From: Flavobacteriales bacterium
GTDB lineage: Bacteria; Bacteroidota; Bacteroidia; Flavobacteriales_F; PHOS-HE28
Length of the DNA stretch: 64,000 bases
Assembly (NCBI GenBank): GCA_047601855.1
Contig: JASGIM010000002.1
Location: forward strand, 846,389 to 910,388
Direction of reading: 5' to 3'
A program made the position numbers and the translations under genes. This document shows positions 6,198-36,355 of this stretch, in pieces. The notes beneath the pieces were generated by a model. It had not been told where the DNA came from and made no database searches. It was given only the letters and a program-made list of their open reading frames with translations. Each line of letters opens with the position of its first letter. Position 1 is the first letter of the stretch.

Positions 6198-6209
6198 TGA
6201 CGGATGTCA
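6198..6209. promoter_or_regulatory. TGAC-N4-GTCA palindrome (GTGACGGATGTCAG), 51 nt upstream of the ccoS start
   Basis: Read directly. Coordinates anchored on the TTG start of ORF 6227. Confidence 0.6.
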
Positions 6210-6220
6210 GACGGATAAGA

Positions 6221-6232
6221 TGACTTTTGTCA
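6221..6232. promoter_or_regulatory. TGAC-N4-GTCA palindrome (ATGACTTTTGTCAG), 74 nt upstream of ccoS and 23 bp centre-to-centre from the first site
   Basis: Read directly and anchored on ORF 6227. Confidence 0.6.
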
Positions 6233-6371
6233 GGAAAGCCGTGTGCGCTTCTCCGACCTAGGCCGACCCATGTCCGCAGGTGGCCTTCGCCTTATCGGGT
6301 CTCAGCTCTCTTGTGCCGACCTCTCGTGTTGTGGGCATGCTCCGCCATGGCACGTGGCCTTATGCGAAGGG

Positions 6372-7348
6372 TCATGGAAAGGTGGACATCCTTTGGATGC
6401 GCTCTACGGTCCGTTCACCTTCCAGCATGGATCCCCGGCTTCTGCGCTGGCGGTCCCGGCGGCCCTTCACCAGATAGAAGGTGGTGAAGAACACCAACAG
6501 TCCGAGCAGCAGGCTGTTCTCCAGCCAGTGTTCGGTGGGATGGACCCAGACCTCGTGGAACAGGTTCCAGCGGCCCATGATCTCCACGAAGTCCCAGAAG
6601 ATCACCACCGTGGGGATGGCGTAGCGTACAGCATGATCGAAGGATCGGATGCGCAGCAGCTTGGAGAACAGGTGAACGCTCCAGGCCAGGATCCGAAAGC
6701 CACGATCCATGTGGTGGGGTGGCGGTCACCGGCGATCTGTTCGTCGTATACGATCAGCAGAACCAGGTAGAAGGTCCACATGAGTATGACCATTTCCATG
6801 AAGGCGATCATGGCCAAGGGACGCTGTGGGGCGGAGGAGATGGTCTTCCTGAGGAGACCGATGCGTTTCTGGATCCACCTGAAGAAGGGGCAGCGGGTGG
6901 GTGCGAAGATGTAGAGCATGAGCATGGTGCCCAGCAGGCCTAGTGAGCTGAGCATCACCAGGTATTCCGGTCTGGTCACTACTTCGCCGTTCTCCACCAG
7001 GGGCTGCACGCCCAACCTGCCTGCCACCCACACGAAAGTGAATTCCACCCATCCGGTCCATGTCAGCACGCCGCCCAGTGCCCCGAGCAAGGTGGCATGC
7101 AGATCGCGCCCCGGCCTTGCTACGCCCCACCACAGTAGGCCGATGCCCAGAGCGCCAATGAAGGTGGCGCTGATGAACACCGCGGTACCGAAGACGTGCT
7201 CCAGGAGCGCCATCAACGCATGGCCCAAGGGCATGAGCAGCAGCACGATCACGAAGGCCAACATGCCCGTGCCCCACCGCCGCCGGCCTCCCTGCATTAT
7301 GGCTTCCATGGCAGGCACAAGAATGACGAAGTCCATCACGAGGCGCAA
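6372..7348 (-). pseudogene. Polytopic membrane protein of unknown family; reading frame broken near 6716-6725 (true frameshift or assembly indel)
   Basis: ORF 6602..7348 is membrane-like up to ...LLIVYDEQIAGDRHP, then turns to Cys/Pro-rich nonsense. ORF 6372..6710 in the -1 frame continues as membrane-like text (MDRGFRILAWSVHLFSKLL...). The two ORFs overlap by 109 nt. A C4 run at 6716-6719 lies just after the TGA that opens the second frame. Confidence 0.5.
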
Positions 7349-7460
7349 TCCCCCGATCCGGGTAATTGGAGCTTGCTGAACAAGTTCCCAGCATGATACA
7401 GGCGCGGAGCCAGCTGCTCCTTCGCGTCAGCGGATCTTGGCTCACCGCAGCCGCGGGTCT

Positions 7461-7955
7461 TTATCGTGCCGTAACTTCAGCGGAGGCGGCCGCATTATCG
7501 AACACCACCTCCCCGTTGTACCGCACCTCCCACGTCACGGGCAATGCCTTCTTCATCATCGCGCTCACGCCGCAGATCTCGTGTTGCGAGCGTTGTACGG
7601 CGGCCAGCGTCGCATCGCGGTGGGCAGTGTCGCCGTGCGCATCGTAGACCAAGTGTACGCTGGTGTATACGATCGGCTTGGTCTTGCTGATCTCGCCGGC
7701 CACGTCCACGCCGAAGCGGTCCAGTTCGATGCCATCCTTGCGCAGCAACGCGATCACGTCCATGCCCGTGCAACCGGCCAGCGCGGTGAGCATGAACGGC
7801 TTGGGGATCGGTCCTTCATCGTCGCCGCCCACGTGCGGTGGCGCATCCATCACCAGCGTATGGCCGTTCACCAACGCGTTGAACTTCATCCGGCCCATCC
7901 AGAGGGCCTCCACTTTGTGCTGCATGGCGATCGAATTCAGGTGCAAGGTCCCCAC
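7461..7955 (-). CDS. OsmC/Ohr family peroxiredoxin-like protein
   Basis: 164-aa ORF with OsmC-type core (PKPFMLTALAGCTGMDV ... HEICGVSAMM, two conserved Cys). The true start may be the internal Met at 7925. Confidence 0.75.
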   Translation of the reverse strand: MGTLHLNSIAMQHKVEALWMGRMKFNALVNGHTLVMDAPPHVGGDDEGPIPKPFMLTALAGCTGMDVIALLRKDGIELDRFGVDVAGEISKTKPIVYTSVHLVYDAHGDTAHRDATLAAVQRSQHEICGVSAMMKKALPVTWEVRYNGEVVFDNAAASAEVTAR

Positions 7956-7982
7956 AGCACGGCGATCGGGAGGTGATGAATA

Positions 7983-8438
7983 TCACAGTGGCGGCGTGCC
8001 ATGCCGCTCATGCGTGTACTCCGCCCAGCTCGTTGCTGTTTCCTGAAGACGTGCATGCGCAAGGCATATGTCCGGTGGCAGTTGTTGCCGGATGCACTCC
8101 ACCATGTCCTTCAGCAGGTTCTCGCAGGTGGGTTGCCATGGCACGAAGACGGTCCGCGCGAAGAGCGGGTGTTCCACGGGGATCGCGGCGCGCTCGTCCG
8201 CATGCAGCACAAGGGCATGGTCGTAATGGGCAAGCACGGCGTGTTGCACGATCGCCTTCAGCACACCGAAGTCCATCACCATCCCTTCATCGGCATCGCC
8301 CACCGTGCCCAGCGCACCGCTCATGGCGACCTCCAGCACGTACGAATGCCCGTGAATGTGCCTGCACGGACCCGCATAGCCGCGCAGCGCATGGGCCATC
8401 TCGAAGGTGAAGCGTTTGGTGATCCGTAGTGGTTCCAT
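7983..8438 (-). CDS. queD: 6-carboxytetrahydropterin synthase / 6-pyruvoyl-tetrahydropterin synthase family
   Basis: 151 aa. FTFEMAHAL and CRHIHGHSYVLEV zinc/catalytic motifs typical of QueD/PTPS. Confidence 0.8.
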   Translation of the reverse strand: MEPLRITKRFTFEMAHALRGYAGPCRHIHGHSYVLEVAMSGALGTVGDADEGMVMDFGVLKAIVQHAVLAHYDHALVLHADERAAIPVEHPLFARTVFVPWQPTCENLLKDMVECIRQQLPPDICLAHARLQETATSWAEYTHERHGTPPL

Positions 8439-8479
8439 GTTTCGGGATGCAGCTCCTGCACTTCCTCACGTTCTCACTC

Positions 8480-9856
8480 TCACCCCACCGGCTCGAACCA
8501 CGCCGTGAAATGCCGCAGGAACTTCGGCTCCTTCACGATGCGGTAGCCGCGTATTTCCTTCCGTGCGCGCATGATCTCCTCGAAGGTCTCGGCCACGTAC
8601 TCGATGTGGCTTTGCGTGTACACGCGTCGTGGGATCGCCAGCCGCACTAATTCCATGCGGGCCGGGCGCAAACTGCCATCGTCGGTGTAGGTGCCGAACA
8701 TCACCGAGCCGATCTCCACGCTGCGGATACCCGCCAGCCGGTACAGTTCGCACACCAGCGCCTGACCCGGATACTCCGCCGGGGGAATGTGCGGGTACAA
8801 CTGCTTCGCGTCCACGTACACCGCATGGCCGCCAATGGGGCGCATGAGCGGCACGCCGAGCGCATGCAGCTTCTCGCCGAGGAAGGTGGTGCTGCGGATG
8901 CGGTAGTCGAGGTAGTGCGGATCGAACACTTCGTCGAGGCCGGCAGCGATGGCCTCCATGTCGCGGCCGCTGAGCCCGCCGTAGGTGGAAAAGCCTTCGG
9001 TGATGATGAGCAAGTTGGTGCATGCCTCGGCCAGCGCGCTATCGCGCAGGGCAAGGAAGCCGCCCATGTTCACCAGCGCGTCCTTCTTCGCGCTCATCAC
9101 GGCACCATCGGCCAACGCGCACATGCGTTGTGCGATGGCACGGTACGAAAGCCCTTCCATGCCCGCCTCGCGGTGCTTGATGAACCAGCTGTTCTCCGCG
9201 ATGCGACAGCAGTCCAGCAGGAAGGGTACGCCGTGGCGCTTGCAGATGCTCGATACGCCTTCGGCATTGGCCATGCTCACGGGCTGCCCGCCGCCGCTGT
9301 TGTTGGTCACGGTAAGGATCACCGCACCGACATGCCCCTTGTGTTCTTTCAGCAGATGGTCCAACGCGGCCACGTCCATGTTGCCCTTGAAGGGATGCTG
9401 TAGTGCGGGATCCTGTCCTTCGGCGATGGGGATGTCGATGGCCGTGGCGCCCGTGAACTCGATGTTGGCGCGGGTGGTATCGAAGTGCGTGTTGCTGATG
9501 AACACCCTGCCCGGCCCACCGAGGTGGCCGTAGATGATGCGCTCCGCCGCGCGACCTTGGTGCGTGGGCAGCACGTGCTCCATGCCGGTGAGCTCCTGCA
9601 TGGCCTCTTCCATGCGCTCCCACGACCGCGATCCCGCGTAAGCCTCATCGCCCTCCATCATGCCCGCCCACTGGCGTGCGCTCATGGCGCTGGTGCCGCT
9701 GTCGGTCATCAGGTCGATGATCACATCGCGCGAGCGCAGCAGGAAGGGGTTGTAGTGCGCGGCCTTCAGTTGTTCCACGCGCTCGGCCTCGGTGCTGATG
9801 CCGGTCGGTTCCACGCTCTTGATGCGGAACGGTTCGATGATGGTGCGGTGCTTCAT
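8480..9856 (-). CDS. tnaA: Tryptophanase-like beta-eliminating lyase (PLP)
   Basis: 458 aa, collinear from memory with E. coli TnaA. Motifs: DLMTDSGTSAMS, PTHQGRAAE, SNTHFDTT (TnaA-type), NNSGGGQPVS, PLP-Lys motif MSAKKDALVNMGGF, ELYRLAGIRSVEIGS. Confidence 0.85.
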   Translation of the reverse strand: MKHRTIIEPFRIKSVEPTGISTEAERVEQLKAAHYNPFLLRSRDVIIDLMTDSGTSAMSARQWAGMMEGDEAYAGSRSWERMEEAMQELTGMEHVLPTHQGRAAERIIYGHLGGPGRVFISNTHFDTTRANIEFTGATAIDIPIAEGQDPALQHPFKGNMDVAALDHLLKEHKGHVGAVILTVTNNSGGGQPVSMANAEGVSSICKRHGVPFLLDCCRIAENSWFIKHREAGMEGLSYRAIAQRMCALADGAVMSAKKDALVNMGGFLALRDSALAEACTNLLIITEGFSTYGGLSGRDMEAIAAGLDEVFDPHYLDYRIRSTTFLGEKLHALGVPLMRPIGGHAVYVDAKQLYPHIPPAEYPGQALVCELYRLAGIRSVEIGSVMFGTYTDDGSLRPARMELVRLAIPRRVYTQSHIEYVAETFEEIMRARKEIRGYRIVKEPKFLRHFTAWFEPVG

Positions 9857-10011
9857 TCTTCTTTGGGATGAACGGTCGTCTGCGTATGTGTACCTGTTGC
9901 GTTGACCCAGTTCCTCCGCGATAGCTTCAGCGAAGGCAGAATGGGCCGACCTGATCGGATTGCCGGGCCTGTGCTATGGATCTATCATGACCCTGAATGA
10001 GTGGGGCGTAG

Positions 10012-11823
10012 TCATCGTAATGCGCCGGGTATCGTCATTGCATGGAGCTCCCGGGTGGTGCATTCCAGTTCGTCGTGCATGCGATCCACATCGATGGATT
10101 CCAACGACCGCAGCTCCGGCAGCAGATCGATGTAATGGCGGATGCCCTCCAGCAGGTTGTTGCGGAAGGCAGTGAGTTGGCGTTGCTGTTTGGCCGTTGG
10201 CGCATGGACCATGCGTTCCAGTTCGCTGCGCAGGTGGTCCATGTAGAGTGAAAGCTCCTTGATGAACATGTGCGGACGGTCCACGCCCCGGAGCAGATCG
10301 GTGCGGCCGTGGATGTGGTCCACCATGGTGCGGAGGGACACCACCTTGTTGAAGTAGGCGGTGTTCGGGCCGGGGCAGATGGCCACGGCCTCCAGCTTGT
10401 GCGCGGGATGCAGTCCTGCCTTCAGCAGGGCCGATGCGCCCAGCCCTTCGCACAGGCAGTCCTTCTCGGTCACGGCGGCCACCTCGCGTTGCAGGGTCGC
10501 GTCATCCAGCCCGGCGGCTTCGAGCTGCGCCACCTTCAGTTTCTGGTACTGGCGCGAGGCGGTGCAGATGGGCTGCCCGGTGAACTCGGTGTTGCTGCTC
10601 AGGAACTTCTTATAGCACGGACTGCCGGGCCTGTTCTTGTCGATGCGCTTTTGCAGTTGCTGGTTCGATGTGCTCGGCCTGAAGTTGTGGAACGGCACGC
10701 CCAGCGGCGAGGCATGGCTCAGGTAGAAGTCCTCCGGCCGTGCGGCACACAGTTGCCGCAGCGTTCCATCGTCCACGTTGGTCGCCTCGGGCACCAGCAG
10801 GAAGGGACTGCCCCATCCGGTGCCGTCCACCCCGTAGTGCGCGCGCAGGAAGCGGTCCTCGGCAGCGGTGCCGATGCCGCCCTGTGCGGTGATGCGCTGC
10901 ACCGGCCGCACGGGGAACACCCACCTGCCCGCCTCGGCCAGCGCCGCATTGCAGGTGCGCCAGAGCTCATCGGCCAGCGACTCCCGTTCCTGCTGGAACG
11001 CTTTCAGGATCGGCCCCATCAGCAGGCCGTCGGTCGCAAAGGCGTGGCCGCCGCAGTTCAATCCCGACTCGATGCGGAACTCCGAGACCCACACGCCCTT
11101 CTTGGCAAGGATGCGCCCCTGCACCTGCGCGGACCGCAGATCGCTCGCTTTCAGGACCACGCGCTTGCGCAACCAGCCCTCCGCGTCGGGAAGGAAGTCC
11201 GGGAAGGTGGCGATGTAGGCGTAGAGCCTCGGATTGTAGCCGGCGCTAAGCACCACGGCCGTGTTCAACGTGCTGTGGGCGAACCCGCGGAAAGCGGCCA
11301 TGGCATCGCAGTACTCCGGTGGAAGGGCATTGCCATCCGCATCGTAGTTCACCGGGTCGATCTTCGCCATGATGTTCACATCGATCGCACCCGGAACGAT
11401 GGCCTTTCGCAGAGCGGCTTCGTACTGGTCGCGTTCATCGCCCGGTGGCATGTTCAGCAGGGCATGGTACCGTGCGCGTAGCGGCGAGCCTTCGGGAAGC
11501 AGTTCGAAGTAGAGCGCGCTTTCCGAGCCGGGCACGATGGGCGTATCGCGCACGCGGTGGGTGTTGCGGTCCACGAGGCGCTGGAGCAGGTCCAGATAGG
11601 CGGTGATCCGCTGCGCGCGATGGTCCGGCCCCGGCTTCGGTATGGGCACGTATGCTTCATCGTTCTGCAGTGCGTGGTGCTCCCGCATGCGTTCCACCAG
11701 CTCATCCTCGATGATGGATACCACCGATGTGATCCCCAGATGCGCCACTTTCAACGGGGTATCAATGGTGTACCCAAGCCCCATCACGGGGATGTGGAAA
11801 GTGTGCGGCGAGGAGACGTGCAT
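10012..11823 (-). CDS. Uncharacterised 603-aa protein with NMO/FabK-like FMN TIM-barrel motifs and a Cys-containing C-terminal extension
   Basis: Long ORF with coding-like composition. Three motifs resemble nitronate monooxygenase: HIPVMGLGY (cf HPIMQGGM), RIESGLNCGGHAF (cf DGFECAGHPG), and ITAQGGIGTAAEDRFLRAHYGVDGTGWGSPFLLVPEAT (cf [35 protein letters not shown]). Function not assignable. Confidence 0.8.
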   Translation of the reverse strand: MHVSSPHTFHIPVMGLGYTIDTPLKVAHLGITSVVSIIEDELVERMREHHALQNDEAYVPIPKPGPDHRAQRITAYLDLLQRLVDRNTHRVRDTPIVPGSESALYFELLPEGSPLRARYHALLNMPPGDERDQYEAALRKAIVPGAIDVNIMAKIDPVNYDADGNALPPEYCDAMAAFRGFAHSTLNTAVVLSAGYNPRLYAYIATFPDFLPDAEGWLRKRVVLKASDLRSAQVQGRILAKKGVWVSEFRIESGLNCGGHAFATDGLLMGPILKAFQQERESLADELWRTCNAALAEAGRWVFPVRPVQRITAQGGIGTAAEDRFLRAHYGVDGTGWGSPFLLVPEATNVDDGTLRQLCAARPEDFYLSHASPLGVPFHNFRPSTSNQQLQKRIDKNRPGSPCYKKFLSSNTEFTGQPICTASRQYQKLKVAQLEAAGLDDATLQREVAAVTEKDCLCEGLGASALLKAGLHPAHKLEAVAICPGPNTAYFNKVVSLRTMVDHIHGRTDLLRGVDRPHMFIKELSLYMDHLRSELERMVHAPTAKQQRQLTAFRNNLLEGIRHYIDLLPELRSLESIDVDRMHDELECTTRELHAMTIPGALR

Positions 11824-11852
11824 GGGTTATGGGAAATGCCTTGGGCTGGAGG

Positions 11853-11909
11853 GTGCGAGAGTGATGGAGGTGTGATGGTGTTGCGTGGCTTGCTCTTTCA
11901 CTCTTGCAC
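11853..11909. repeat. Inverted repeat GTGCGAGAGTGA ... TCACTCTTGCAC (11/12) in the spacer between tpl stop and the 603-aa gene start
   Basis: Read directly and anchored on ORFs 11603 and 11885. Same 10-mer as the nadA-nadB hairpin. Confidence 0.5.
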
Positions 11910-11923
11910 TCTCTCACGTATTC

Positions 11924-13309
11924 CTACCCCAACCGCTCGAACCTTGCCTGAAAGAACCGCAGGTACTTCGGCTCGTATACCATCTTCAGGCCGGTGATGG
12001 AAGCGCGGCGTTCGTACACGCGTTGCACGCTCTCGGCGATCACGTCCATGTGGGCCTGTGTGTACACGCGGCGGGGGATGGTGAGGCGCACCAGTTCCAA
12101 CTCCGGGTAACAGTGGTCGCCGGTGTCCTTGTCGCGACCCGCGCTCACGATGCCGCGTTCCATGGCACGTACGCCCGAATCGATGTACAGCTCGGCGGCC
12201 AGCGTCTGCGCGGGAAAGGCCGTCTGCGGAAGGTGCGGAAGGAAGGCCTTCGCATCGAGGAAGACCCCGTGCGTACCCACGGGTCTCACGATCGGGATGC
12301 CCATGTCCAGCAGCTTGTTTCCGAGGTAGAACACTTGCCCCACGCGGGCGCGGATGTGGTCGTCCTGCACGCTCTCCGCGATGCCGATCGCCATAGCTTC
12401 CATGTCGCGCCCGGCGAGGCCGCCGTAGGTGTGCAGGCCTTCGTACACCACCACCATGTTGCGGGCCTCCTCGAACACGTCCCACTCGTTGGTGGCCATG
12501 AAACCTCCGATGTTCACCAGCGCATCCTTCTTCGCGCTCATGGTGGCGCCGTCGGTGAGCGAGCAGATCTCCCGCACGATCTTCGCCACGCTGCGGCCGC
12601 GTTGTCCTTCTTCCAACTGCTGGATCATGTAGGCGTTCTCGGCCACGCGCGTCATGTCGTGGATGATGCGGATCCCGTGCTTCGTACACAGTTCGCGCAG
12701 CGCCTTCAGGTTGGCGAGCGCGATGGGCTGCCCGCCGGCCATGTTCACCGTGGTGGCGATGGACACGTAAGGGATCCTCTTCGCGCCATGCGTGTCGATG
12801 ATGCGTTGCAGCTTGGCGAGGTCCACGTTGCCCTTGAAGGGGAAGGTGCTCTGTGCGTCGTGGGCCTCGTCCACGATGATGTCCACGAAGGTGCCACCTG
12901 CCAGTTCCTGATGGAGCTTGGTGGTGGTGAAGTACATATTGCCCGGCACGATGTCGCCGGGCTTGATGAGAATGCGCGAGAGGATGTTCTCCGCGCCGCG
13001 CCCCTGATGCGTGGGCACGATGTACGTGTAGCCGTAGTACTTCTGGATCGCGGCTTCCAGATGATAGTAGTTGCGGCTGCCCGCATAGGCTTCATCGCCG
13101 AGCATCAGTCCCGCCCACTGGCGGTCGCTCATGGCGCTGGTGCCGCTGTCGGTGAGCAGGTCGATATAGACGCGTTCGGAAGGCAGCAGGAAGGTGTTGT
13201 TGCCCGCCTCGGCCATGGCCTGCTCGCGTTCGGCAAGCGTGGTCATGGTGAGGGGTTCCACCATCTTGATCTTGTAGGGCTCGGCCCATGAGGTGTGTGT
13301 CGCTGGCAT
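11924..13309 (-). CDS. tpl: Tyrosine phenol-lyase-like beta-eliminating lyase (PLP)
   Basis: 461 aa, closely collinear from memory with Citrobacter TPL. Motifs: GNMYFTTT (TPL-type), VNMAGGQPIALAN, MSAKKDALVNIGGF, VVVYEGLHTYGGLAGRDMEAMAIG, LTIPRRVYTQAHMDV. Confidence 0.85.
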   Translation of the reverse strand: MPATHTSWAEPYKIKMVEPLTMTTLAEREQAMAEAGNNTFLLPSERVYIDLLTDSGTSAMSDRQWAGLMLGDEAYAGSRNYYHLEAAIQKYYGYTYIVPTHQGRGAENILSRILIKPGDIVPGNMYFTTTKLHQELAGGTFVDIIVDEAHDAQSTFPFKGNVDLAKLQRIIDTHGAKRIPYVSIATTVNMAGGQPIALANLKALRELCTKHGIRIIHDMTRVAENAYMIQQLEEGQRGRSVAKIVREICSLTDGATMSAKKDALVNIGGFMATNEWDVFEEARNMVVVYEGLHTYGGLAGRDMEAMAIGIAESVQDDHIRARVGQVFYLGNKLLDMGIPIVRPVGTHGVFLDAKAFLPHLPQTAFPAQTLAAELYIDSGVRAMERGIVSAGRDKDTGDHCYPELELVRLTIPRRVYTQAHMDVIAESVQRVYERRASITGLKMVYEPKYLRFFQARFERLG

Positions 13310-13381
13310 GCACGGCCCGGGCTTGCGGATGGGGGTGCCGCCCGGCAGCGCGAAGTTCAGCGGATGGATCTGTCCGAATAA

Positions 13382-13393
13382 TGACGATGGTCA
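13382..13393. promoter_or_regulatory. TGAC-N4-GTCA palindrome (ATGACGATGGTCAG), 73 nt upstream of the tpl start
   Basis: Read directly and anchored on ORF 13293 (codons AAT AAT GAC GAT GGT CAG). Confidence 0.55.
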
Positions 13394-15128: not shown

Positions 15129-17426
15129 TCATCCCAGTTCCAACATCCGCCGCAACGACCGTTCTGCCTCCTGCCGCACGTCCTCGGACAGTTCGATCGC
15201 AGGCCGGCCATCGCGCAGCGCGGTGTACATCTTGCGCACTGTGTTCCGCTTCATGTACGGGCACTCGCTGCATGCACAGGTGTTGCTGACATGCGCGGGC
15301 GCGGGGATCAGCATCTTGTGCGGCGTGGCCGCGCGCATGCGGTGCAGGATGCCCGCTTCGGTGGCCACGATGAAGGTGTGGCCCGGATCCCGCTGCACGA
15401 ACTCCAGCAGCGACGCGGTGGACCCTACATGGTCAGCGTCGGCGAGGATGTGCTCGGGACATTCCGGATGAGCGATGAGCTTCGCGTCCGGATGCTTTCC
15501 CATCAGCAGCTTCAGCTTGTCGGCGCTGATGTCCACGTGTACCTCGCAGGCACCATCCCACAGCACCAGTGACCGTCCGGTGATGCGCTGCACGTAGGCG
15601 CCAAGGTGCTTGTCGGGCGCGAAGATCACCGGGCGGTCCTTCGGTAGACTGTTCACTACACGCACCGCGTTGCTGCTGGTGCAGATGATATCGCTCATGG
15701 CCTTCACCGCAGCGCTGCAATTGATGTAGCTCACCACGAGGTGGCCGGGATGCGCATCGATGAAGGCACGGAACTTATCCGCCGGTGCGCTGTCGGCCAA
15801 GGAGCAACCGGCTTCAAGGTCCGGCAGTAATACCGTGCGCATGGGGTTCAGGATCTTCGCGGTCTCGGCCATGAAATGCACGCCGCAGAAGAGGATGGTG
15901 TCCGCGCCGGTGCGATCGGCGGCCTGTGCCAGCGCAAGGCTGTCGCCCACGAGGTCGGCCAGCTCCTGGATGTCGGGCGTCTGGTAGTAGTGCGCGAGGA
16001 TCACCGCGTTGCGTTCGGCCTTCAGCGCGAGCAACGCTTCGTGCAGGTCATGCTCGGAGATGTTATCAAGGCTGCTGGCGTCGTGGATCGATAGCTGCGC
16101 TGCGGGTTGCTCAGAAGAAGGCCGGGCGTTCCACAGGGCACGCGCAGCGTGGCGCACCAGCAATGTAAGGCCGGTGAACAGGCCGAGGCCGGACACCGCG
16201 AACCCCGCGATGAAGGGCCACGCCTTGTCCATGATGGGCTGGAAGGCCATGCCGGTGGTGACGGTGAGCCAGCCTTTCACCACACCTGCACCCACCAGGC
16301 ACAGCCAGAAGAGGAGCAACGAGGCATTGAAGATCCAGAAGCCTGCACGGGCCGTGCGATCCAGGGTGCTTCCGGCGATGAAGCATACCGACGCGAACAG
16401 GATGGTGGTGTTGATGCCGATGGTGCTGCCCATGGCGTGCGCCACGGTGATGTGCGTGCCATGCGTGAAGAGATTGATGGCCGGGATGCTGATCAGCAGC
16501 GCGAGGCCGAGGTTGAGGAACACCCATACTTCGCTGGCGAAGAGGAACCGATGCGTGAGCGAATGGCGCTGCTTCAAGCCTGCGTCCAACGTGGTGCGCC
16601 ACTGATGGATGATGCGCGCCAGGATGATCCATTCGGTCATGCTGATGGCATAGGCGAGGATCCGTACCCAGGATGCGGCGGGGACCGGATAGATGTGATG
16701 GGCCCAGCCGAAGAGCAGGTTGGTGAAGCCCAGCGCGAACAACAGGAAGGCCGTGCGCGACAGGGCCACTGAGCGGTCGCCGCTGATGCGTTCCATCACC
16801 ACCATGGAGGTGCCGTACACCAGCATGTTCCACGATCCGGTGAGCGCGCCGTAGGCCTTCCACTGCACGGTGAGGTCGCGTACTGCGTTGCCGCTGAAGA
16901 TGGGCAGCAGGTACAGATGCGCCTCGGCGAACGTGAGCAGGAAGAACACGATGCCCGTGGCCCACATCCACAGGTAGGCCGGCCATGGGCCTTTATGCTT
17001 TGTTGCTGTGCGGAAGAAATTGTACACCAATAGCAGCCAGCCCGCCGCGATCGGAATCCCCAGCACCGGCGGGAACTCCCAATACTCCCGTCCACCGAAG
17101 CGGCCCATGAGGTAGGAGCCGATGATGAGCAGGCCCGTGCCCATGAAGAGCACCAGATGCCACCACACCAGCCTCGGCGCGTGCAACGGTACACCGGTGA
17201 GCTGTGGCAGATAGTGGTACACGCCGCCTACGGCGCCCAGGAAGATCCACGCCACCACCAGTGAAACATGGAGCGGACGCGACTTCACGAAGGGGATGGC
17301 ATCCACCACACCAGGAATCACATGCTGCCAGGAACCGATCACGCCGAACATGGCGCCGCACCACAGGGCCAGCAACCCGGCCAACAGGAACAGGCGCGCG
17401 GGATCGCGATCAGCGGGCGTCCTCAT
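15129..17426 (-). CDS. nadA: In-frame fusion: divergent NorB-like heme-copper-oxidase membrane domain (about 17426-16140) + quinolinate synthase NadA (about 16075-15129)
   Basis: Start at ATG 17426 (MRTPADRDP), overlapping the norC-like stop by 17 nt. N-domain has 12 predicted TM helices with AIPFVKSRPLHVSLVVAWIFLGAVGGVYHYLP, GWAHHIYP and THGTHITVAHAMG. C-domain has RNAVILAHYYQTPDIQELADLVGDSLALAQ, FCGVHFMAETAKILNP and three Fe-S Cys contexts. No stop and no ATG/GTG in the junction. Confidence 0.7.
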   Translation of the reverse strand: MRTPADRDPARLFLLAGLLALWCGAMFGVIGSWQHVIPGVVDAIPFVKSRPLHVSLVVAWIFLGAVGGVYHYLPQLTGVPLHAPRLVWWHLVLFMGTGLLIIGSYLMGRFGGREYWEFPPVLGIPIAAGWLLLVYNFFRTATKHKGPWPAYLWMWATGIVFFLLTFAEAHLYLLPIFSGNAVRDLTVQWKAYGALTGSWNMLVYGTSMVVMERISGDRSVALSRTAFLLFALGFTNLLFGWAHHIYPVPAASWVRILAYAISMTEWIILARIIHQWRTTLDAGLKQRHSLTHRFLFASEVWVFLNLGLALLISIPAINLFTHGTHITVAHAMGSTIGINTTILFASVCFIAGSTLDRTARAGFWIFNASLLLFWLCLVGAGVVKGWLTVTTGMAFQPIMDKAWPFIAGFAVSGLGLFTGLTLLVRHAARALWNARPSSEQPAAQLSIHDASSLDNISEHDLHEALLALKAERNAVILAHYYQTPDIQELADLVGDSLALAQAADRTGADTILFCGVHFMAETAKILNPMRTVLLPDLEAGCSLADSAPADKFRAFIDAHPGHLVVSYINCSAAVKAMSDIICTSSNAVRVVNSLPKDRPVIFAPDKHLGAYVQRITGRSLVLWDGACEVHVDISADKLKLLMGKHPDAKLIAHPECPEHILADADHVGSTASLLEFVQRDPGHTFIVATEAGILHRMRAATPHKMLIPAPAHVSNTCACSECPYMKRNTVRKMYTALRDGRPAIELSEDVRQEAERSLRRMLELG

Positions 17427-17877
17427 GCATGGAACGATACGTGCCCCACGGCGTGAGGTCGATGTGACGGATGGGATAGGTGCCGGTGGCGTCCACCGCC
17501 TGCAGGAAGGCCACGACGTCATCGGCCTGTTGCTCGCTGAGGCCCAGCATGGGCATGCGCTGCGTGCCGTGCAGGATGATACCCTTGGCGAAGGCGGGAC
17601 CCTTGCCGGGTGTGCTCACCACGTTCGTAAGGTCCGGCCCCATGTAGCCGCCCAGCCCGTAGAACTGGTGGCACGCCGTGCAGTTGAACTCCCGGTAAAG
17701 CTGTGCTCCCCGCGTGGCGGCCGCATTGTAGCTCGCGCGTTCATCGCGCACCTCGGTCGCCGTGGTGTAGGTGATCGCCGATCCCGCCACGAAGAGCGCT
17801 ACGAGCCCGAAGAAGATGGCGCGGCGGTGGCGGGCACCGAAGGCCGATGGCTGCGTGGCGTTCATGCCGGCGTGCAA
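17410..17877 (-). CDS. NorC-like membrane-anchored monoheme cytochrome c
   Basis: 155 aa with an N-terminal TM anchor (AIFFGLVALFVAGSAI). REFNCTACHQFYGLGGYMGPDLTNVV resembles NorC NNCVGCHTLLGEGAYFAPELGNVV. LSEQQADDVVAFL resembles NorC LSEGQVDDLAEFL. Confidence 0.7.
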   Translation of the reverse strand: MHAGMNATQPSAFGARHRRAIFFGLVALFVAGSAITYTTATEVRDERASYNAAATRGAQLYREFNCTACHQFYGLGGYMGPDLTNVVSTPGKGPAFAKGIILHGTQRMPMLGLSEQQADDVVAFLQAVDATGTYPIRHIDLTPWGTYRSMHEDAR

Positions 17878-18547: not shown

Positions 18548-18600
18548 GGTCGATGGTCCGTATATGCCGCGAACATATTCGGACAAATACATCCTATTCA

Positions 18601-18612
18601 TGACGACCGTCA
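18601..18612. promoter_or_regulatory. TGAC-N4-GTCA palindrome (ATGACGACCGTCAA), 54 nt upstream of the fasciclin start
   Basis: Read directly and anchored on the TTG start of ORF 17987..18613. Confidence 0.55.
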
Positions 18613-18623: not shown

Positions 18624-18635
18624 TGTTTTTTGTCA
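18624..18635. promoter_or_regulatory. Degenerate second site TGTT-TTTT-GTCA (2 mismatches), 23 bp from the 18601 site
   Basis: Shares the 11-mer TTTTGTCAGGA with the distal cco site at the same relative position. Confidence 0.35.
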
Positions 18636-18636
18636 G

Positions 18637-19251: not shown

Positions 19252-19352
19252 GAGGTGAATGGTCAGTAGTGGTTGGCGAATGGGAAATGCGGCGCGCGTG
19301 GATCCGTCCCATTCACCATTCGCCACCGACCATTCGCTGTATTCATTCTCAC
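19252..19352. repeat. Intergenic imperfect palindrome of the same GAATGG/CCATTC family
   Basis: GAGGTGAATGGTCAGTAGTGGTTGGCGAATGGGAAATGCGG ... CGTCCCATTCACCATTCGCCACCGACCATTCGCTGTATTCATTCTCAC. Fills the spacer between the nosY stop and the CopD-like start. Confidence 0.7.
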
Positions 19353-20115
19353 AGGTCCTTCCTCCGGAACGCCCGGAACGCGGACCACGCCGGGATGGCC
19401 ACCCACAACGACAGGATCAATGCGGCCACCAGCATGCCCATGGTGCTGCCGAAGAAGTTCTTGTAGATGGCACCGCTATAGCCCATCATCGCGGCGAGGT
19501 CCACTTCCAGCATCACCAGGATGCGGGCGAGGTCGATGGGGTTGAGGCCGGCGAGCGGGACCACGAACGGTTCGATGGGGTAGTCGCTCAGGGCGAACAT
19601 CAGGCCCATCAGCAGGGCATCGTACACCAGCACGAAGAGCAGCCATACGGCGAGCGATAACCCCACGCCTCGTGCCTTCTCCCGCTGCCGCAGCGCGATC
19701 AACGCGCCGAGCGCCACGAAGACCAGCACCAGCGCCGAGCCCGCGAGGCTCAGTATCAGCGAAGCCATGGTGGGCGCGTGCAGCAGCAGGGGATCCCCAG
19801 CCCGATGGCCTGCGCCACCAACAGCGCCGCAGCCAGCGCCAGCAGCTGCCCGCCGAGGATGGAGCGCCGCGCGATGGGCTGCACCGCCAGCAACTGCGTG
19901 AACTCCTGGATGTCGTACAGGTATACCACCGTGAACACCAACGTGATCAGCGGCACCAATGCCAGCACCACCTGCACGAGGCTCAGCAGCGCCTTCATGG
20001 GATCGTCCTCCAGCATGAAGAGCCCTTGCGCGATCAGCAACATCAACGCCGCGTAGCCCAGCACGAAGCGGTTGCGAGCCAGGTCGAGGAGGGTGTATTT
20101 GAGGACCTTCAGCAT
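19349..20115 (-). pseudogene. nosY: ABC-2 permease NosY, frame broken near 19789-19798 (frameshift or assembly indel)
   Basis: ORF 19756..20181 (from MLKVLKYTLLDLARNRF at 20115) reads membrane-like to ...LVAQAIGLGIP, then CCCTRPPWLR-stop. The -1 frame continues PLLLHAPTMASLILSLAGSALVLVF... (ORF 19349..19768). Junction is GGGGATCCCC. Confidence 0.7.
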
Positions 20116-20215
20116 GGTTGCCGGGTTACGTGCTTCGTGTTTGGCATTCCCACGCCTCCAATACGCAACGCGCCAACCCATGACACACGAGCCTGTATCC
20201 CATATGTCCCGGATC

Positions 20216-20255
20216 CATGTTCATCATTCACCATTCCATATTCGTCATTCCTCCC
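20216..20255. repeat. Single-arm copy of the CATTCA/CCATTC repeat overlapping the nosF stop
   Basis: CATGTTCATCATTCACCATTCCATATTCGTCATTCCTCCC. On the minus strand it encodes the last nosF residues GGMTNMEW and the stop. Confidence 0.6.
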
Positions 20256-20981
20256 TCCAGCATCACCGGCAGTGCCTTCGCCAGCCGGTCCGTTCCGGTG
20301 GTTTCGAGGATCTCGCGCACAGGCAGCAGGAAACGAAGGACGCCATCCTCGAGGTAGGCCACGCGGTCGGCGAGCGACTCCACTTCCTCCATGAGGTGCG
20401 AGGTGATCAGCACCGTGCTACCGGCATCGCGCACACGGGCGGCTTCGGACAGCACGCGCCTGCTGCTGATGGGGTCCAGACCGGCAGTGGGTTCATCCAT
20501 CACGAGGATCGACGGGCGGGTGCGGAAGGCCAGCACGGCGCTCACCTTCTGGCGTGTGCCGCCGCTCAGGGTGCCGAGGCGCTTATCCCATTGCTTGTCC
20601 AGTCCCAGTTCGGCGATCAACGTATCGTCCGGCTCGCCGGGACTTAGGCTGCGCACGTCGGCCATCATGCCGAACAGTTGGCCGATGGTGAGCGACGCCG
20701 GGAACTGCGAGAATCTGCGGCATGTAGCCGAGCGCTTCGCGGTAGTGGGGATCCGGGGCATGTCCTTGTGCATCGATCACGGTGCCATCGACGGTGAGGC
20801 GTCCTTCCGTGGGATGCACCAATCCGAGCAGGCATTTGATCAACGTGGTCTTGCCGCTGGCGTTCGGGCCGATCAGCATCACCACTTCGCCCGCGTGGAA
20901 CGCACACTCCACACCACGCAGGGCCCACAGCTTGCCATAGCGTTTGCCTATGCCCGAGAAGAGGATGCGGGGTTCAGCCAT
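20228..20981 (-). pseudogene. nosF: ABC ATPase NosF, frame broken near 20710-20716 (frameshift or assembly indel)
   Basis: N-part (ORF 20583..21044, start MAEPRILF at 20981) has Walker A GPNASGKTT and reads to ...EALGYMPQI. The +1 frame (ORF 20228..20773) continues SQFPASLTIGQLF..., with signature LSGGTRQKV and Walker B ILVMDEPTAGLD. Confidence 0.75.
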
Positions 20982-21005
20982 GGTGCGCGGGGAACTGCGG
21001 GAAGG

Positions 21006-21120
21006 CCATTCAACATTCACCATTCGTCGTTCAACATTCAGCATTCACCGGTTTGCATTCTTTCTCGCTTCGCCCTGCGTGAATGAGAAATGATGAATGC
21101 TGAACGTCCAATGTTGAACT
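21006..21120. repeat. Intergenic/terminal imperfect palindrome of the same family (arms in opposite order)
   Basis: CCATTCAACATTCACCATTCGTCGTTCAACATTCAGCATTCACC ... GTGAATGAGAAATGATGAATGCTGAACGTCCAATGTTGAACT. Contains the nosD stop (21031) and lies just upstream of the nosF start (20981). Confidence 0.7.
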
Positions 21121-26233: not shown

Positions 26234-26284
26234 GGCTTCGTGGTTTCAGTGCTCAAATATCATCGGACCATTTTATCCGTAATA

Positions 26285-26296
26285 TGACGGATGTCA
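26285..26296. promoter_or_regulatory. TGAC-N4-GTCA palindrome (ATGACGGATGTCAG) in the divergent nos / NnrS-like promoter
   Basis: 52 nt from the nos cytochrome c ATG (26233) and 51 nt from Met 26347. Same 13-mer TGACGGATGTCAG as the proximal cco site. Confidence 0.6.
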
Positions 26297-26346
26297 GTCG
26301 ATCGCATGATCCTTACGGGCTAGGTTCGCGGGCTCCTTCCCGCCCC

Positions 26347-27546
26347 ATGCGCCGCTGGTTCCAACTGTCCCTGCTGTTCTTCGCCGTGGCGGCCACCATC
26401 GGTGCACTGCTGCGGCTGATCTACGTGGTGGAGCTTCCCTGGCTCGTGTTCAAGCCCTGGCTGCATGCGCATTCGCACGTGGCCATGCTGGGCTGGCTCT
26501 TCCCCGGCCTGCTCATCGCCCTGCTGCGGCAGGACGACCGCCCCGCCCCGCGCCGCTTCCGCACCTGGATGACGCTTTCGATGGCCTTCGTGGTCGGCAT
26601 GCTGGTGAGCTTCCCCATCCAGGGGTACGGCCCCATCTCCATCGCCTGCTCACTGGCCCAGATGTTCGTGGGCTATGCGCTGAGCGTGCAGGTGTGGCGA
26701 CACACGTCGCGCTGGCCGGTGGCGGGCAGCCGCCTGCTGGTGCGGCTCGCGTTGCTGTTCCAGGCCATCAGCACCATCGGCGTATGGGCCATGGGGCCGA
26801 TCATGCACAGCGGCCTGGCGGGCAGCGAGTGGTACTACTGGAGCATCCAATGGTTCCTGCACTTCCAGTTCAACGGCTGGTTCTGGTTCGCGGCCATGGC
26901 CATCGGCAGCCGCTGGGCGGAGCGCCACGGCGTGGATGTGCAGCTGGACCGCCTTACGGTGTTCCTCTGGGTGATCGGCACGGTGCTCACGTTCGCGCTG
27001 GCCATCGCGTGGAGCGAACGGACCATCGGCGTGATCGCGGTGAACTCCGTGGGCGTGCTGGTGCAGGCGTGGGCGGCGTGGCGCACCCTGCGCGCCATGC
27101 AGCACGCGCGGCCGCAGGCGCAGGTGCGCACCACGCGCTGGATGCGCATCGTGATCGGCACCATGCTCATCGCCATGGCCGTCAAGGTGGCCGCGCAGGC
27201 CGCCGCGTCCATCCCCGCCGTGGCCGACATCGCCGTCACGCTGCGCAACTATGTCGTCGGCTTCGTACACCTCAACACGATCGGCGCCGCCACCATGGTG
27301 CTGATGGCCTTCGCGCTGGAACGCCGCTGGCTGGATGAAGCCTGCGCGCCGGTCCGCGCCGGACTGGCCTTGCTGATTGCCGGGTTCGCCTTCAGCGAGC
27401 TGCTGCTCTTCGGCCAGGGCACGCTGATCTGGATACGCTGGGGCATGCTGCCCGGCTACCATTGGATGCTGTTCGCGGTGAGCGCGATGCTGCCGATAGG
27501 GGTGCTGCTGCTGGTGGCGGGGTCGCGTTCCGGCGAGAACGTGTGA
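26347..27546 (+). CDS. Polytopic membrane protein, NnrS-like (assignment tentative)
   Basis: ORF 26284..27546. Start moved to MRRWFQLSLLFF because the upstream ATG lies inside the TGAC-N4-GTCA site. About 12 TM helices. WLHAHSHVAMLGW resembles the NnrS HAHxxxFGW motif. Divergent from the nos operon. Confidence 0.55.
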   Translation: MRRWFQLSLLFFAVAATIGALLRLIYVVELPWLVFKPWLHAHSHVAMLGWLFPGLLIALLRQDDRPAPRRFRTWMTLSMAFVVGMLVSFPIQGYGPISIACSLAQMFVGYALSVQVWRHTSRWPVAGSRLLVRLALLFQAISTIGVWAMGPIMHSGLAGSEWYYWSIQWFLHFQFNGWFWFAAMAIGSRWAERHGVDVQLDRLTVFLWVIGTVLTFALAIAWSERTIGVIAVNSVGVLVQAWAAWRTLRAMQHARPQAQVRTTRWMRIVIGTMLIAMAVKVAAQAAASIPAVADIAVTLRNYVVGFVHLNTIGAATMVLMAFALERRWLDEACAPVRAGLALLIAGFAFSELLLFGQGTLIWIRWGMLPGYHWMLFAVSAMLPIGVLLLVAGSRSGENV

Positions 27547-31184: not shown

Positions 31185-31237
31185 GGTGATCGTGCGATGG
31201 ATGATGAGAGGAAGACAAAGTTCCATGCCACATCAGC

Positions 31238-31249
31238 TGACCATCGTCA
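31238..31249. promoter_or_regulatory. TGAC-N4-GTCA palindrome (CTGACCATCGTCAG), 54 nt upstream of the nrdJ start
   Basis: Read directly and anchored on ORF 31105. Confidence 0.55.
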
Positions 31250-31520
31250 GTTGCAACGATCGATCTCCACCGCCTTGTCAACGATCCTGAAAGGCTTTCT
31301 GGGCGCGGGTCATAGGAGCTTTACGCCCTGCGGCGGAGCGTGTCCGGGAGGTGTGCGCCGCCGCCTCCATCCCCTCGCGGGAAAGCGGGCCGCGATGCCC
31401 GGGAACGCATGGGGAACGGGCGTGTCCGACGCGTTCGCTGCGCGGGCCATGGCCTGTGGCGGCGGAACGCTTGTTGGAAGCCGGGACCGCATCCCCTGAT
31501 CGAGGTATCCGGCCGGCCGG

Positions 31521-31553
31521 AAAAGGAAAGGGCGTGGATCCGGTCCACGCCCC
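31521..31553 (-). terminator. Rho-independent terminator after gdh
   Basis: 9-bp GC stem GGGCGTGGA/TCCACGCCC (31530-38 / 31544-52) with a 5-nt loop. Followed on the minus strand by CTTTCCTTTT. Lies 27 nt past the gdh stop. Confidence 0.7.
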
Positions 31554-31578
31554 TTTTTCGGTGTTCGTTCCTTCCGGC

Positions 31579-32868: not shown

Positions 32869-32986
32869 TGTCAGGTTTTTTGGTTCCCCCATGCAAGGGG
32901 GCGCAAAGTTGGGGTGCTTTCTTTCACTTATGGAGGTCCGGGGCGTTCCCTTTTTTATCGCAGGATTGCATTCCGACCCAGAACGC

Positions 32987-35401: not shown

Positions 35402-35455
35402 GGGGTGAACGTGGATGGATCGGACCGGCGCATGTCCGATCCTCTTCGGTGTGGA

Positions 35456-36262
35456 CTAGTCGCGTTGTTCCAGTACCAGCAGTGGGTGATGCCCGTCCAG
35501 CGCCAGTTCCTTCGCCATGCTCGCATGGAAGAGCCGGCCCAGGAACCCGGTGTGCCTGTGGATCACGGCGATCATGTCCGCCCGCTCTTTCTGAGTGGAG
35601 CGCAGCAGTGCATCGGCGATGTCCCGGCCGTGGGCTTCGATGAACCGCAGCGGAACGCCCGACAGCCCGGTCCCATAGATGCCATTGCTCCAATGGTCGG
35701 CGCCCTCCTGCATCGATACGGGGACGTGGGCCACCACGACCTCCGCGGCGGTGTGCAAGGCGATGGAGCGGAGCACGGCCAGGTCCTTCGGGGCCACCAC
35801 GTCGTGGTCGTCCGCCAGCAGGACCCGTTGCAGCGGGCGGATGGCGGCGTTCTCCGGCACGGCCAGCACCGGTATGGGGCTGTTCTTGATCATGGCCGTG
35901 GTGTTGGTGCCGAACAACGGGTTCTGGTGCTTGCCGCGCTGGCCCATCACCACCAGATCGCCCCCGTGTTCGAACGCGAAGGCGTCCAAGGCCACGGGCA
36001 ATGGGCCCAGGAGCAGTTCCTGGCTTGCGCCTTGGATGCCCGTGCGTTCCCGGAACGCCGTGAGCGTATCCTCCAAGGCGATCCGGGTGGTTTCGAGCAG
36101 CTCGGGCACGTAGGCCTGGACCATGGGGTCGGCATAGCCGGTCTCGAAATGGGCATGCACGAACACATAGGACACATCGTCCCGGCCGAATACGCGCGAA
36201 GCGTACAGGGCGGCGTGCATGGCACTGTCGCTGAAGTCGGTGAGCAGGAGGATGCGCATCAT
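35456..36262 (-). CDS. Tandem universal stress protein (UspA) domains
   Basis: Start taken at MMRILLLTDFS. Two Usp halves, each ending in a G-x2-G-x9-G(S/T)-like ATP motif region (VVMGQRGKHQNPLFGTNT; VIHRHTGFLGRLFHASM). Confidence 0.7.
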   Translation of the reverse strand: MMRILLLTDFSDSAMHAALYASRVFGRDDVSYVFVHAHFETGYADPMVQAYVPELLETTRIALEDTLTAFRERTGIQGASQELLLGPLPVALDAFAFEHGGDLVVMGQRGKHQNPLFGTNTTAMIKNSPIPVLAVPENAAIRPLQRVLLADDHDVVAPKDLAVLRSIALHTAAEVVVAHVPVSMQEGADHWSNGIYGTGLSGVPLRFIEAHGRDIADALLRSTQKERADMIAVIHRHTGFLGRLFHASMAKELALDGHHPLLVLEQRD

Positions 36263-36343
36263 CGCGGATCGTCTTTTATGGAACGTACCGCGAAGCAGCC
36301 CCATCCCGGGGATCGGCGGCATGAGCGAAGTCGGTCTTCCGCC

Positions 36344-36355
36344 TGACGATCGTCA
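36344..36355. promoter_or_regulatory. TGAC-N4-GTCA palindrome (CTGACGATCGTCAG), 50 nt upstream of the CDO-like/kinase/regulator operon and 82 nt from divergent usp
   Basis: Read directly and anchored on ORF 36219. Confidence 0.55.

Follow-up and report, generated by a model that had tools for sequence, protein, structure and literature searches.

Bacteroidota are major aerobic and micro-aerobic degraders and, through clade II nosZ, important sinks of nitrous oxide (N2O). In Flavobacterium psychrophilum the cbb3-type oxidase is induced under O2 limitation, with no regulator named for the induction (PMC9723704), and no named O2-responsive regulator of Bacteroidota cbb3 or nos genes was found in the literature that we searched. 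The question of what such a regulator might be is raised by a 64,000-nucleotide (nt) stretch of the genome of a Flavobacteriales bacterium (assembly GCA_047601855.1, contig JASGIM010000002.1, positions 846,389 to 910,388; the whole stretch is hereafter the window, and positions are counted from its first letter). Here a short palindrome, TGAC-N4-GTCA, recurs upstream of the operons for a cbb3-type oxidase (cco), for N2O reductase (nos) and for several other functions, and a preliminary description made from the letters alone took it for an FNR/FixK-like box of low-oxygen promoters. Are these palindromes protein-binding sites, which protein would read them, and in response to which signal?

The answer that we regard as probable from the sequence evidence is that the boxes are operators for a dimeric activator of the CRP/FNR superfamily, most likely the REC-Crp protein encoded in the window, a response regulator with a Crp-type output, which would act with a neighbouring FixL-type histidine kinase in inducing its targets at low O2. 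We set out below how the boxes are placed, how they relate to promoters, how far they are conserved and what the regulator and kinase look like, and then weigh this answer against its alternatives.

Exact palindromes are confined to intergenic DNA

A pattern scan of the window for TGAC-N4-GTCA (TGACNNNNGTCA) returned seven exact matches, at 6198, 6221, 13382, 18601, 26285, 31238 and 36344, the same seven that had been listed before. Dinucleotide-preserving shuffles contained TGACNNNNGTCA 1.01 times on average (standard deviation 0.99, maximum 4), which reproduces the earlier estimate of about one chance occurrence in 64 kb, and none of 100 shuffles reached seven, as expected if the sites are in excess of chance, as had been argued. 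On a gene map built from third-position G+C (GC3), Pfam and NCBIfam, all seven exact boxes are intergenic, as the preliminary description held, and the comparison of coding with non-coding DNA that it proposed placed none in coding DNA, though approximately 90% of the window (65% G+C) codes. The one-mismatch variants (n = 13) are distributed like background, with 11 in coding and two in intergenic DNA. Relaxing the arms to TGAY/RTCA added one further intergenic site, an eighth box at 7974-7985 (TGATGAATATCA). The core TGA...TCA is invariant at all eight window sites, which share a 5-4-5 inverted-repeat geometry, and the outer base on the promoter-distal side is C in six of them.

Measured from the box edge to the nearest plausible start codon, the distance is 50 nt for the box at 6198 and 73 nt for that at 6221 (both to the ccoS ATG at 6147), 72 nt for 13382 (to 13309), 53 nt for both 18601 (to 18547) and 31238 (to 31184), 51 and 50 nt for the two sides of 26285 (to 26233 and 26347, respectively), and 49 nt for 36344 (to 36405). 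These two groups of values, 49-53 and 72-73 nt, agree with the earlier figures of 50-54 nt at five sites and 73-74 nt at two when differences in counting are taken into account. Between sites the flanks are non-homologous, and the longest strings that they have in common are the boxes themselves. A repeated or mobile element as carrier of the boxes was ruled out, as the flanks share no more than the box. An Rfam scan of the window matched no family, so that no riboswitch or small RNA accounts for the intergenic conservation.

Boxes stand at a fixed distance from a -7 element

Upstream of cco, a scan for sigma-70 promoters gave no hit, which is expected for Bacteroidota, and the search was therefore turned to the -7 box of this phylum. 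A Bacteroidetes -7 box (TAnnTTTG-like), oriented to the downstream gene, starts 24 nt past the palindrome and thus leaves a 23-nt spacer. Seven promoters on six boxes show this geometry, with a spacer of 23 nt at six and of 24 nt at one. The composite of a box, 22-24 nt and nAnnTT[TC]G occurs six times in the window against 0.025 expected from Markov simulations, and the seventh composite-like promoter, at 7974, has a -7 box of the TTGC type. Pairing one-mismatch boxes with a -7 box yielded no extra promoters in the window.

The flavobacterial -7 box TAnnTTTG spans -12 to -5 (PMC9723704), so that with a 23-nt spacer the palindrome is predicted to span -47 to -36 and to be centred at about -41.5. 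The regularity in start-codon distance follows from the fixed 23-nt distance to the -7 box, and predicted 5' untranslated regions (5'UTRs) are 13-37 nt long. The transcription starts predicted from this geometry fall at about 6162, 7938, 13346, 18565, 26249, 26333 and 36391. No TTTG/TTG -33 element was found beside the box at any of the seven composite promoters, which is the pattern expected of promoters that depend on an activator. Position -41.5 is where class II activators of the CRP/FNR type bind. On these patterns of sequence the palindromes are very probably real activator sites of the CRP/FNR type.

The operon ccoS-ccoNO-ccoP-ccoG-fixH is preceded by two boxes, a proximal one at 6198..6209 (TGACGGATGTCA) with a predicted centre at -41.5 and a distal one at 6221..6232 (TGACTTTTGTCA), 23 bp upstream of it, with a predicted centre at about -64.5; its -7 box (CACTTTCG, 6167..6174, minus strand) predicts a transcription start at ~6162 and a 5'UTR of ~15 nt. 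The eighth box, which overlaps the stop codon of a PTPS gene, lies upstream of an OsmC-like gene (likely ATG at 7925) and is separated by a 23-nt spacer from a -7-like element of the TTGC type at 7943-7950 (GACCTTGC). Upstream of the operon lyase2 - 603-aa gene - lyase1 - PTPS (aa, amino acids), the box at 13382..13393 is followed after 23 nt by a -7 box at 13351-13358 (GAACTTCG, minus strand). The same spacing separates the box at 18601..18612, upstream of the operon fasciclin - cytochrome c - NorB-like::NadA - NadB, from its -7 box at 18570-18577 (TATGTTCG, minus strand), and a degenerate distal half-site at 18624-18635 (TGTTTTTTGTCA) repeats here the 23-bp offset seen at cco. These boxes with their 23-nt -7 spacing support the earlier suggestion that the lyase and norB-like::nadA clusters are drawn into the same control, which is predicted here.

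The box at 26285..26296 is shared by divergent genes, with a -7 box at 26254-26261 (GATATTTG, minus strand) on the side of the nos operon (cytochrome c-nosZ-..., minus strand) and another at 26321-26328 (TAGGTTCG, plus strand), after a 24-nt spacer, on the side of a gene for a 399-aa membrane protein (plus strand). Finally, the box at 36344..36355, with a divergent usp gene on its other side, precedes the operon of a CDO-like protein, the PAS kinase and REC-Crp and has a perfect TAnnTTTG -7 box at 36379-36386 (TACGTTTG, plus strand) after 23 nt; it is predicted to be autoregulatory.

The boxes recur around relatives of the regulator

When the regulator protein was compared with species-representative genomes, at least 600 stretches matched, of which at least 589 encode a relative. 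The loci examined are the best 80 of these at least 600, taken with up to 10 kb of flanking sequence on either side, and they divide into 12 close loci (68-85% identity) and 68 distant ones (46-54% identity) from Chitinophagales, Cytophagales, Sphingobacteriales and Crocinitomicaceae. Cultured carriers among the matches include Daejeonella lutea DSM 22385, Hymenobacter koreensis JCM 17924, Mucilaginibacter psychrotolerans, Spirosoma utsteinense and Pseudoflavitalea rhizosphaerae.

In the 12 close relatives the CDO-like/kinase/regulator operon is kept and its neighbours are reshuffled: five loci have cco, two have the lyase cluster, and locus L010 has nadA-nadB, nrdJ, fasciclin and nos. The autoregulatory box is present in 11 of the 12 (L001, L003-L011 and L016), where it lies ~1.8 kb before the regulator gene; the sequence of L002 ends short of it. 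Its N4 spacer differs among the close loci, the arms read TGAC/GTCA, TGAC/ATCA, TGAT/ATCA or TGAT/GTCA, and a -7-like box stands 23 nt past it at eight close loci inspected by eye. Further boxes are found at stand-alone nadA (L005, L010), at usp (L001-L003) and at cco (L001, L007, L016), where they are tandem as in the window, the distal box of L016 being identical (TGACAAAAGTCA).

The 68 distant loci (1.14 Mb) contain 38 composite motifs against 0.45 in simulations, an 85-fold excess, and the nameable genes downstream of them are ccoI, ccoS, ccoNO, the nos cytochrome c gene, usp, osmC, the 603-aa gene and the regulator or kinase. At eight distant cco promoters (L012, L029, L032, L042, L056, L065, L066 and L077) there are two boxes 22-23 bp apart, of which the proximal one is 23 nt from TAnnTTTG. 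Boxes also stand at the nos cytochrome c gene (L070, L073, L074) and at the fasciclin gene (L010, L064, L070), a composite site in L072 is followed by an OsmC homologue, and the 603-aa gene is preceded by a box in L005 and L064 and, at a distance of 482 nt, by a composite in L074. The pair of kinase and REC-Crp is accompanied by a box also in Bacteriovoracaceae (Bdellovibrionota; L015 2394-2405, L022 8735-8746), where it is placed 22 nt before a TTATxx -10-like element and not a Bacteroidetes -7 box.

Of 108 pooled half-sites, 50 have C as the outer base, 40 have A, 10 have G and 8 have T, and the family-wide consensus is MTGAY-N4-RTCAK with an avoided outer T, in agreement with the form (A/C)TGAC given in the preliminary description. 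The phylogenetic footprinting that it had called for shows boxes kept at cco, the nos cytochrome c gene, nadA, usp, fasciclin, osmC, the 603-aa gene and the regulator operon. Judged from these genomes, the boxes of the window extend to a phylum-wide regulatory module.

A response regulator with a Crp module as output

The protein that had been suggested as binder is encoded at 38158..39219 (plus strand). Pfam recognises a receiver domain (Response_reg, residues 4-116), a cNMP-binding-like domain (cNMP_binding, E = 3e-19) and a Crp-type helix-turn-helix (HTH_Crp_2, 1.4e-16; Crp, 1.7e-5), and Escherichia coli CRP, which aligns over residues 159-340, is the best PDB match of the C-terminal two domains (E about 1e-20). 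By this domain composition the regulator belongs to the CRP/FNR superfamily and is at the same time a two-component response regulator with a whole Crp module as its output. The closest homologues (75-88% identity) come from uncultured high-GC 'Flavobacteriales' metagenome-assembled genomes, the name that sources give it is only 'response regulator' or 'CRP-like', and the FixK model of NCBIfam scores 85 bits against a cutoff of 300. No other Crp-type protein was found by Pfam among 40 scanned open reading frames (ORFs) of the window.

The receiver pocket (E8, D9, D52, T/S82 and K104) is invariant in 81 sequences, and so are E317 and R321 of the recognition helix. In CRP and FNR the Glu and Arg of this helix contact the TGA core, which is as invariant in the present boxes as E317 and R321 are in the protein. 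Compared with R180-E-T-V-G-R185 of CRP, the helix T-E-S-L-I-R keeps Glu and Arg and has lost R180, as in FNR-type proteins, and the position of the FNR Ser in E--SR is occupied by Ile in 67 sequences, Ser in 9 and Asn in 5. No covariation was seen between the residue at this FNR Ser212 position (Ile, Ser or Asn) and the outer base of the box, T being avoided in the Ile and Ser groups, of which the Ser group has only 10 sites. The cyclic AMP (cAMP) contacts R82 and S83 of CRP are replaced by M and E, so that the middle domain is probably structural, and the only Cys residues are the three scattered ones C51, C229 and C322.

The PAS kinase gene lies directly upstream of REC-Crp in approximately 75 of the 80 species, a cco operon is within 10 kb in approximately 35 and nos is nearby in five. 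This co-localisation across the phylum, together with the conserved autoregulatory boxes, strongly supports the suggestion that REC-Crp is the binder, and we think it likely that it binds the boxes under the control of the adjacent kinase.

A kinase with a FixL-like PAS domain

The kinase is a soluble PAS-HisKA-HATPase histidine kinase encoded at 36917..38161 (plus strand); the longest ORF opens at 36857, the likely ATG at 36917 overlaps the stop codon of the CDO-like gene, and the end of the kinase gene overlaps the REC-Crp start codon. Its single PAS domain matches the haem PAS domain of Bradyrhizobium japonicum FixL (phmmer E = 1e-18 over 120 residues), and no other PAS family in PDB gave a comparable match. 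The proximal His of the putative haem site (His200 in B. japonicum FixL) aligns, within RARH versus RSRH, and is present in 70 of 72 aligned family members. Two Arg residues in the distal pocket of FixL, Arg220 and Arg206, link the binding of O2 to inhibition of the kinase. At the position of FixL Arg220 the family has Arg in 28 members, Met in 23 and Leu in 14, and the Sphingobacteriales members keep a near-complete FixL pocket with both Arg220 and Arg206, Arg220 being present in all eight.

Genes of the window

Operons on the minus strand run from 26.3 kb down to 0.6 kb according to Pfam and NCBIfam. They include the nos run (cytochrome c, nosZ, nosD, nosF, nosY and a CopD-like gene) and, further along, the OsmC-like gene and two hypothetical genes, followed by ccoS, fused ccoNO, ccoP, ccoG and fixH; to the right lie the gene of the 399-aa membrane protein, nrdJ, and a usp-ccoI-gdh run. 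Most of the gene labels given earlier hold: fused ccoNO, ccoP, ccoG, FixH, NosZ, NosD, NrdJ (whose NCBIfam score exceeds the equivalog cutoff), NadA, NadB, two beta-eliminating lyases, Usp, the CDO-like protein, the PAS kinase and REC-Crp. The label 'NnrS-like' for the gene at 26347-27546 found no support in Pfam or NCBIfam; weak homologues of its product, the 399-aa membrane protein, with 32% identity, adjoin nos in L044 and L073. No model specific to the regulator exists in NCBIfam, nor one for the CDO-like protein, for the 399-aa and 603-aa proteins or for a 198-aa protein of the nos cluster.

The ORF at 15129-17522 (minus strand) encodes 797 aa in which a distant NorB-like haem-copper-oxidase domain (PDB 3o0r, E = 4e-12) is fused to a full NadA (quinolinate synthase). 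NadA stands alone in L005 and L010, with the same box upstream, and the fusion seems specific to the lineage of the window. In nosY (19349-20181) and nosF (20228-21030) alike, a single frameshift splits the gene between two frames, and in nosF it is the Walker A part that is out of frame with the rest. Either these are assembly errors or the genes are real pseudogenes.

The 603-aa protein (10012-11823, minus strand) has no match in Pfam or NCBIfam; it is 50-65% identical across Bacteroidota orders and is encoded ~3.5-7 kb from the regulator in L005, L044, L064, L073 and L074. The lyases at 8480-9856 and 11924-13309 belong to the tyrosine phenol-lyase/tryptophanase family and are 44-47% identical to each other (tblastn). 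A PTPS/QueD-like gene belongs to the lyase operon, and L005 and L008 share synteny across the cluster.

The first gene of the regulator operon encodes the CDO-like cupin (36405..36917, plus strand; Pfam CDO_I) and is found at this place in close relatives only, and a TauE/SafE sulfite-exporter homologue (39274-40005, plus strand) follows the regulator gene. The CDO fold is that of thiol dioxygenases, which are O2-using enzymes, and the two genes may provide a cysteine-to-sulfite link or have an auxiliary role in O2 sensing. On the plus strand, at 48295-57703, two very long ORFs of 2149 and 1026 aa follow CHU_C and PorP/SprF genes of type IX secretion, a system whose markers place the organism in Bacteroidota; the two ORFs probably encode large secreted or surface proteins.

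Weighing the alternatives

Several observations weigh against the proposal that a FixL-type kinase and REC-Crp activate these promoters at low O2. The earlier claim of a near-fixed offset from the start codon stands and is refined to a fixed spacing from the -7 box, but nrdJ departs from this spacing: its box at 31238..31249 has a -7-like element (GAACTTTG, 31216-31223) only 14 nt past the palindrome, which puts its centre at about -32.5 and misfits class II activation. The same 14-nt spacing recurs at nrdJ in L010 (about 19640-19680). The usp promoter of the window lacks the 23-nt geometry as well; the inclusion of usp under the shared box at 36344 is accordingly weak in the window itself, while usp genes do carry boxes in relatives. 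A box upstream of the kinase operon was found in 41 of 66 loci, that is, not in all. The window kinase has Met and Ala at the positions of FixL Arg220 and Arg206, respectively. Lastly, the view is one of 64 kb, and an FNR, Dnr or HcpR paralogue encoded elsewhere could bind or share the sites.

The alternative that survives best accepts both the protein pair and the boxes and replaces the signal by NO, CO or redox, which would make the regulon one of denitrification or nitrosative stress. In B. japonicum FixL, bound O2 is stabilised by Arg220, a position that has Met in the window kinase and Arg in only 28 sequences of the family; with the distal Arg pair absent, discrimination in favour of O2 is not guaranteed and any of these other cues could act. 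The presence of nosZ and a NorB-like protein in the regulon would suit such a signal. We nonetheless consider it unlikely: the cbb3 oxidase operon is the most frequent and most conserved target, nrdJ and nadA/nadB are O2-independent substitutes, both of which fit O2 limitation, and the Sphingobacteriales retain the near-complete FixL pocket. A regulon that joins a high-affinity oxidase, N2O reductase, a B12-dependent ribonucleotide reductase and NadA/NadB indicates O2 limitation, and we favour O2 as the signal, with some reserve.

A second alternative assigns the boxes to another paralogue encoded outside the window, such as an FNR with a Cys cluster or a Dnr- or HcpR-like NO sensor, and leaves REC-Crp with another role or with a share of the sites. 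Several Crp/Fnr paralogues with overlapping boxes are common in bacteria, and nos and nor-like genes are typical targets of Dnr and NnrR. Overlap is documented for the boxes of FixK and FnrN (PMC7888657). What makes this alternative rather improbable is that REC-Crp co-localises with cco and nos and that the composite excess of 85-fold is found around REC-Crp in 68 distant species; moreover, a box precedes the operon of the regulator itself, even in Bacteriovoracaceae with their sigma-70-type -10 elements, and the recognition-helix residues E317 and R321 match the TGA core in their invariance. REC-Crp therefore stays our preferred binder.

The boxes might instead be operators of a repressor that blocks the promoters under oxic conditions, since the box overlaps the position of the -33 element and the nrdJ box at about -32.5 sits where occlusion is typical. 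Yet the seven composite promoters have no -33 element beside the box, as is the case at activator-dependent promoters, and a repressor does not need a fixed helical phase. A strict register at -41.5 with a tandem box at about -64.5 is a hallmark of class II and class III activation. Repression is thus very unlikely, and we retain activation by REC-Crp.

That these short palindromes in intergenic DNA are chance occurrences, repeat remnants or small hairpins or terminators is effectively refuted by the shuffles (0 of 100 reaching seven) and the six composites against 0.025 expected, by unrelated flanks, arms kept while N4 varies in relatives and the empty Rfam scan, and by arms of 4 bp with a 4-nt loop, which make no stable terminator and are found before genes rather than after them.

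Comparison with known systems

The boxes share with the anaerobox of FNR, Anr and FixK (TTGAT-N4-ATCAA) the 5-4-5 palindrome, the TGA...TCA core, a predicted position at -41.5, the absence of a -35/-33 element and an optional second site upstream, and the targets are likewise cbb3 oxidase (fixNOQP/ccoNOQP), nos and O2-independent isozymes. Of the earlier claim that they match FNR/FixK boxes with changed flanks, geometry and core hold, whereas the boxes avoid the outer T of TTGAT, which only 8 of 108 half-sites have, and show C or A there; at the fifth position this high-GC genome has C. As in the E--SR helix of FNR, Glu and Arg are kept and R180 of CRP is absent, but Ile stands at the position of Ser212, a TAnnTTTG -7 box takes the place of the sigma-70 -10 hexamer, and a receiver domain is found instead of the N-terminal Cys cluster of FNR (Cys20, 23 and 29 with Cys122), which holds an O2-labile [4Fe-4S] cluster. 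With no such Cys cluster, with Ile for Ser and with the outer T of the box avoided, REC-Crp is not an FNR proper. E. coli CRP, the paradigm of a dimeric class II activator and the best PDB match, differs in R82, S83 and R180, which are not kept, and in its box, TGTGA-N6-TCACA as against TGAY-N4-RTCA here.

A parallel in design is given by the FixL-FixJ-FixK and hFixL-FxkR-FixK cascades, in which a haem-PAS kinase stands on top and a Crp-family activator acts through an FNR-like box at cbb3 and denitrification genes (PMC7888657, PMC6710368); induction at low O2 is the logic proposed here too. FixK is a Crp-family activator without sensory input of its own that is transcribed under FixJ or FxkR, whereas REC-Crp has its own receiver and is not a FixK; receiver and Crp activator are one polypeptide here, and the FixJ/FxkR step and the relay to fixK are absent. 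The window kinase also differs from FixL in lacking Arg220 and Arg206, and the cascades occur in alpha- and betaproteobacteria, in contrast to the Bacteroidota and Bacteriovoracaceae that carry the present system. DevSR/DosSR and Myxococcus NmpRSTU similarly link a haem- or O2-linked kinase to a hypoxia regulon including cbb3 (PMC11841059, PMC5638771), but with NarL/LuxR- or NtrC-type outputs, other operators and no Crp-type output. In an mSystems meta-regulon paper the Crp homologues of Flavobacteriales are treated as carbon sensors like MalR, and forms fused to a receiver go unmentioned. The literature search, which left most subscription journals outside, met with no account of a REC-Crp regulator or of the box, nor of any FixL-like kinase in Bacteroidota.

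A proposed low-oxygen switch

From these comparisons we infer a mechanism in which REC-Crp would bind the boxes and activate rather than repress. When O2 is scarce, the FixL-type kinase, through a PAS domain that presumably carries haem, would phosphorylate Asp52 of the regulator; the activated dimer would bind MTGAY-N4-RTCAK at about -41.5 from the predicted transcription start, upstream of the sigma-A -7 box of promoters that have no -33 element, and would recruit RNA polymerase as class II activators do. A second box 22-23 bp upstream would reinforce the cco and fasciclin/nor-like/nadAB promoters, and the box before its own operon would give positive autoregulation. The putative regulon would comprise the cbb3 oxidase operon, a nos cluster of clade II type with the divergent membrane protein, NorB-like::NadA with NadB for O2-independent NAD synthesis, the two beta-eliminating lyases with the 603-aa protein and PTPS, the OsmC-like gene, nrdJ with its atypical geometry, and the regulator operon.

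In terms of general biochemistry, NrdJ and NadA/NadB would be O2-independent replacements for O2-requiring routes, and their inclusion suggests a low-O2 programme in which such routes are swapped for these enzymes. We lean, if only slightly, towards a still broader reading, in which the FixL-like kinase and REC-Crp form a two-protein hypoxia switch with its MTGAY-N4-RTCAK operator at -41.5; throughout aerobic Bacteroidota, and in Bacteriovoracaceae as well, this switch would be the master regulator of micro-oxic respiration.

A response regulator in which a receiver is fused to a whole Crp module is an architecture uncharacterised in the literature found, and it would collapse the FixL-FixJ-FixK relay into one phosphotransfer step. 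If the proposal is true, it would be a first example of class II-type activation at the -7/-33 promoters of Bacteroidota and would give the low-O2 response of cbb3 oxidase a concrete sensor, regulator, operator and promoter geometry. Regulons would become predictable from sequence in hundreds of species, given at least 589 loci in species-representative genomes, and so would the conditions under which N2O reduction switches on.

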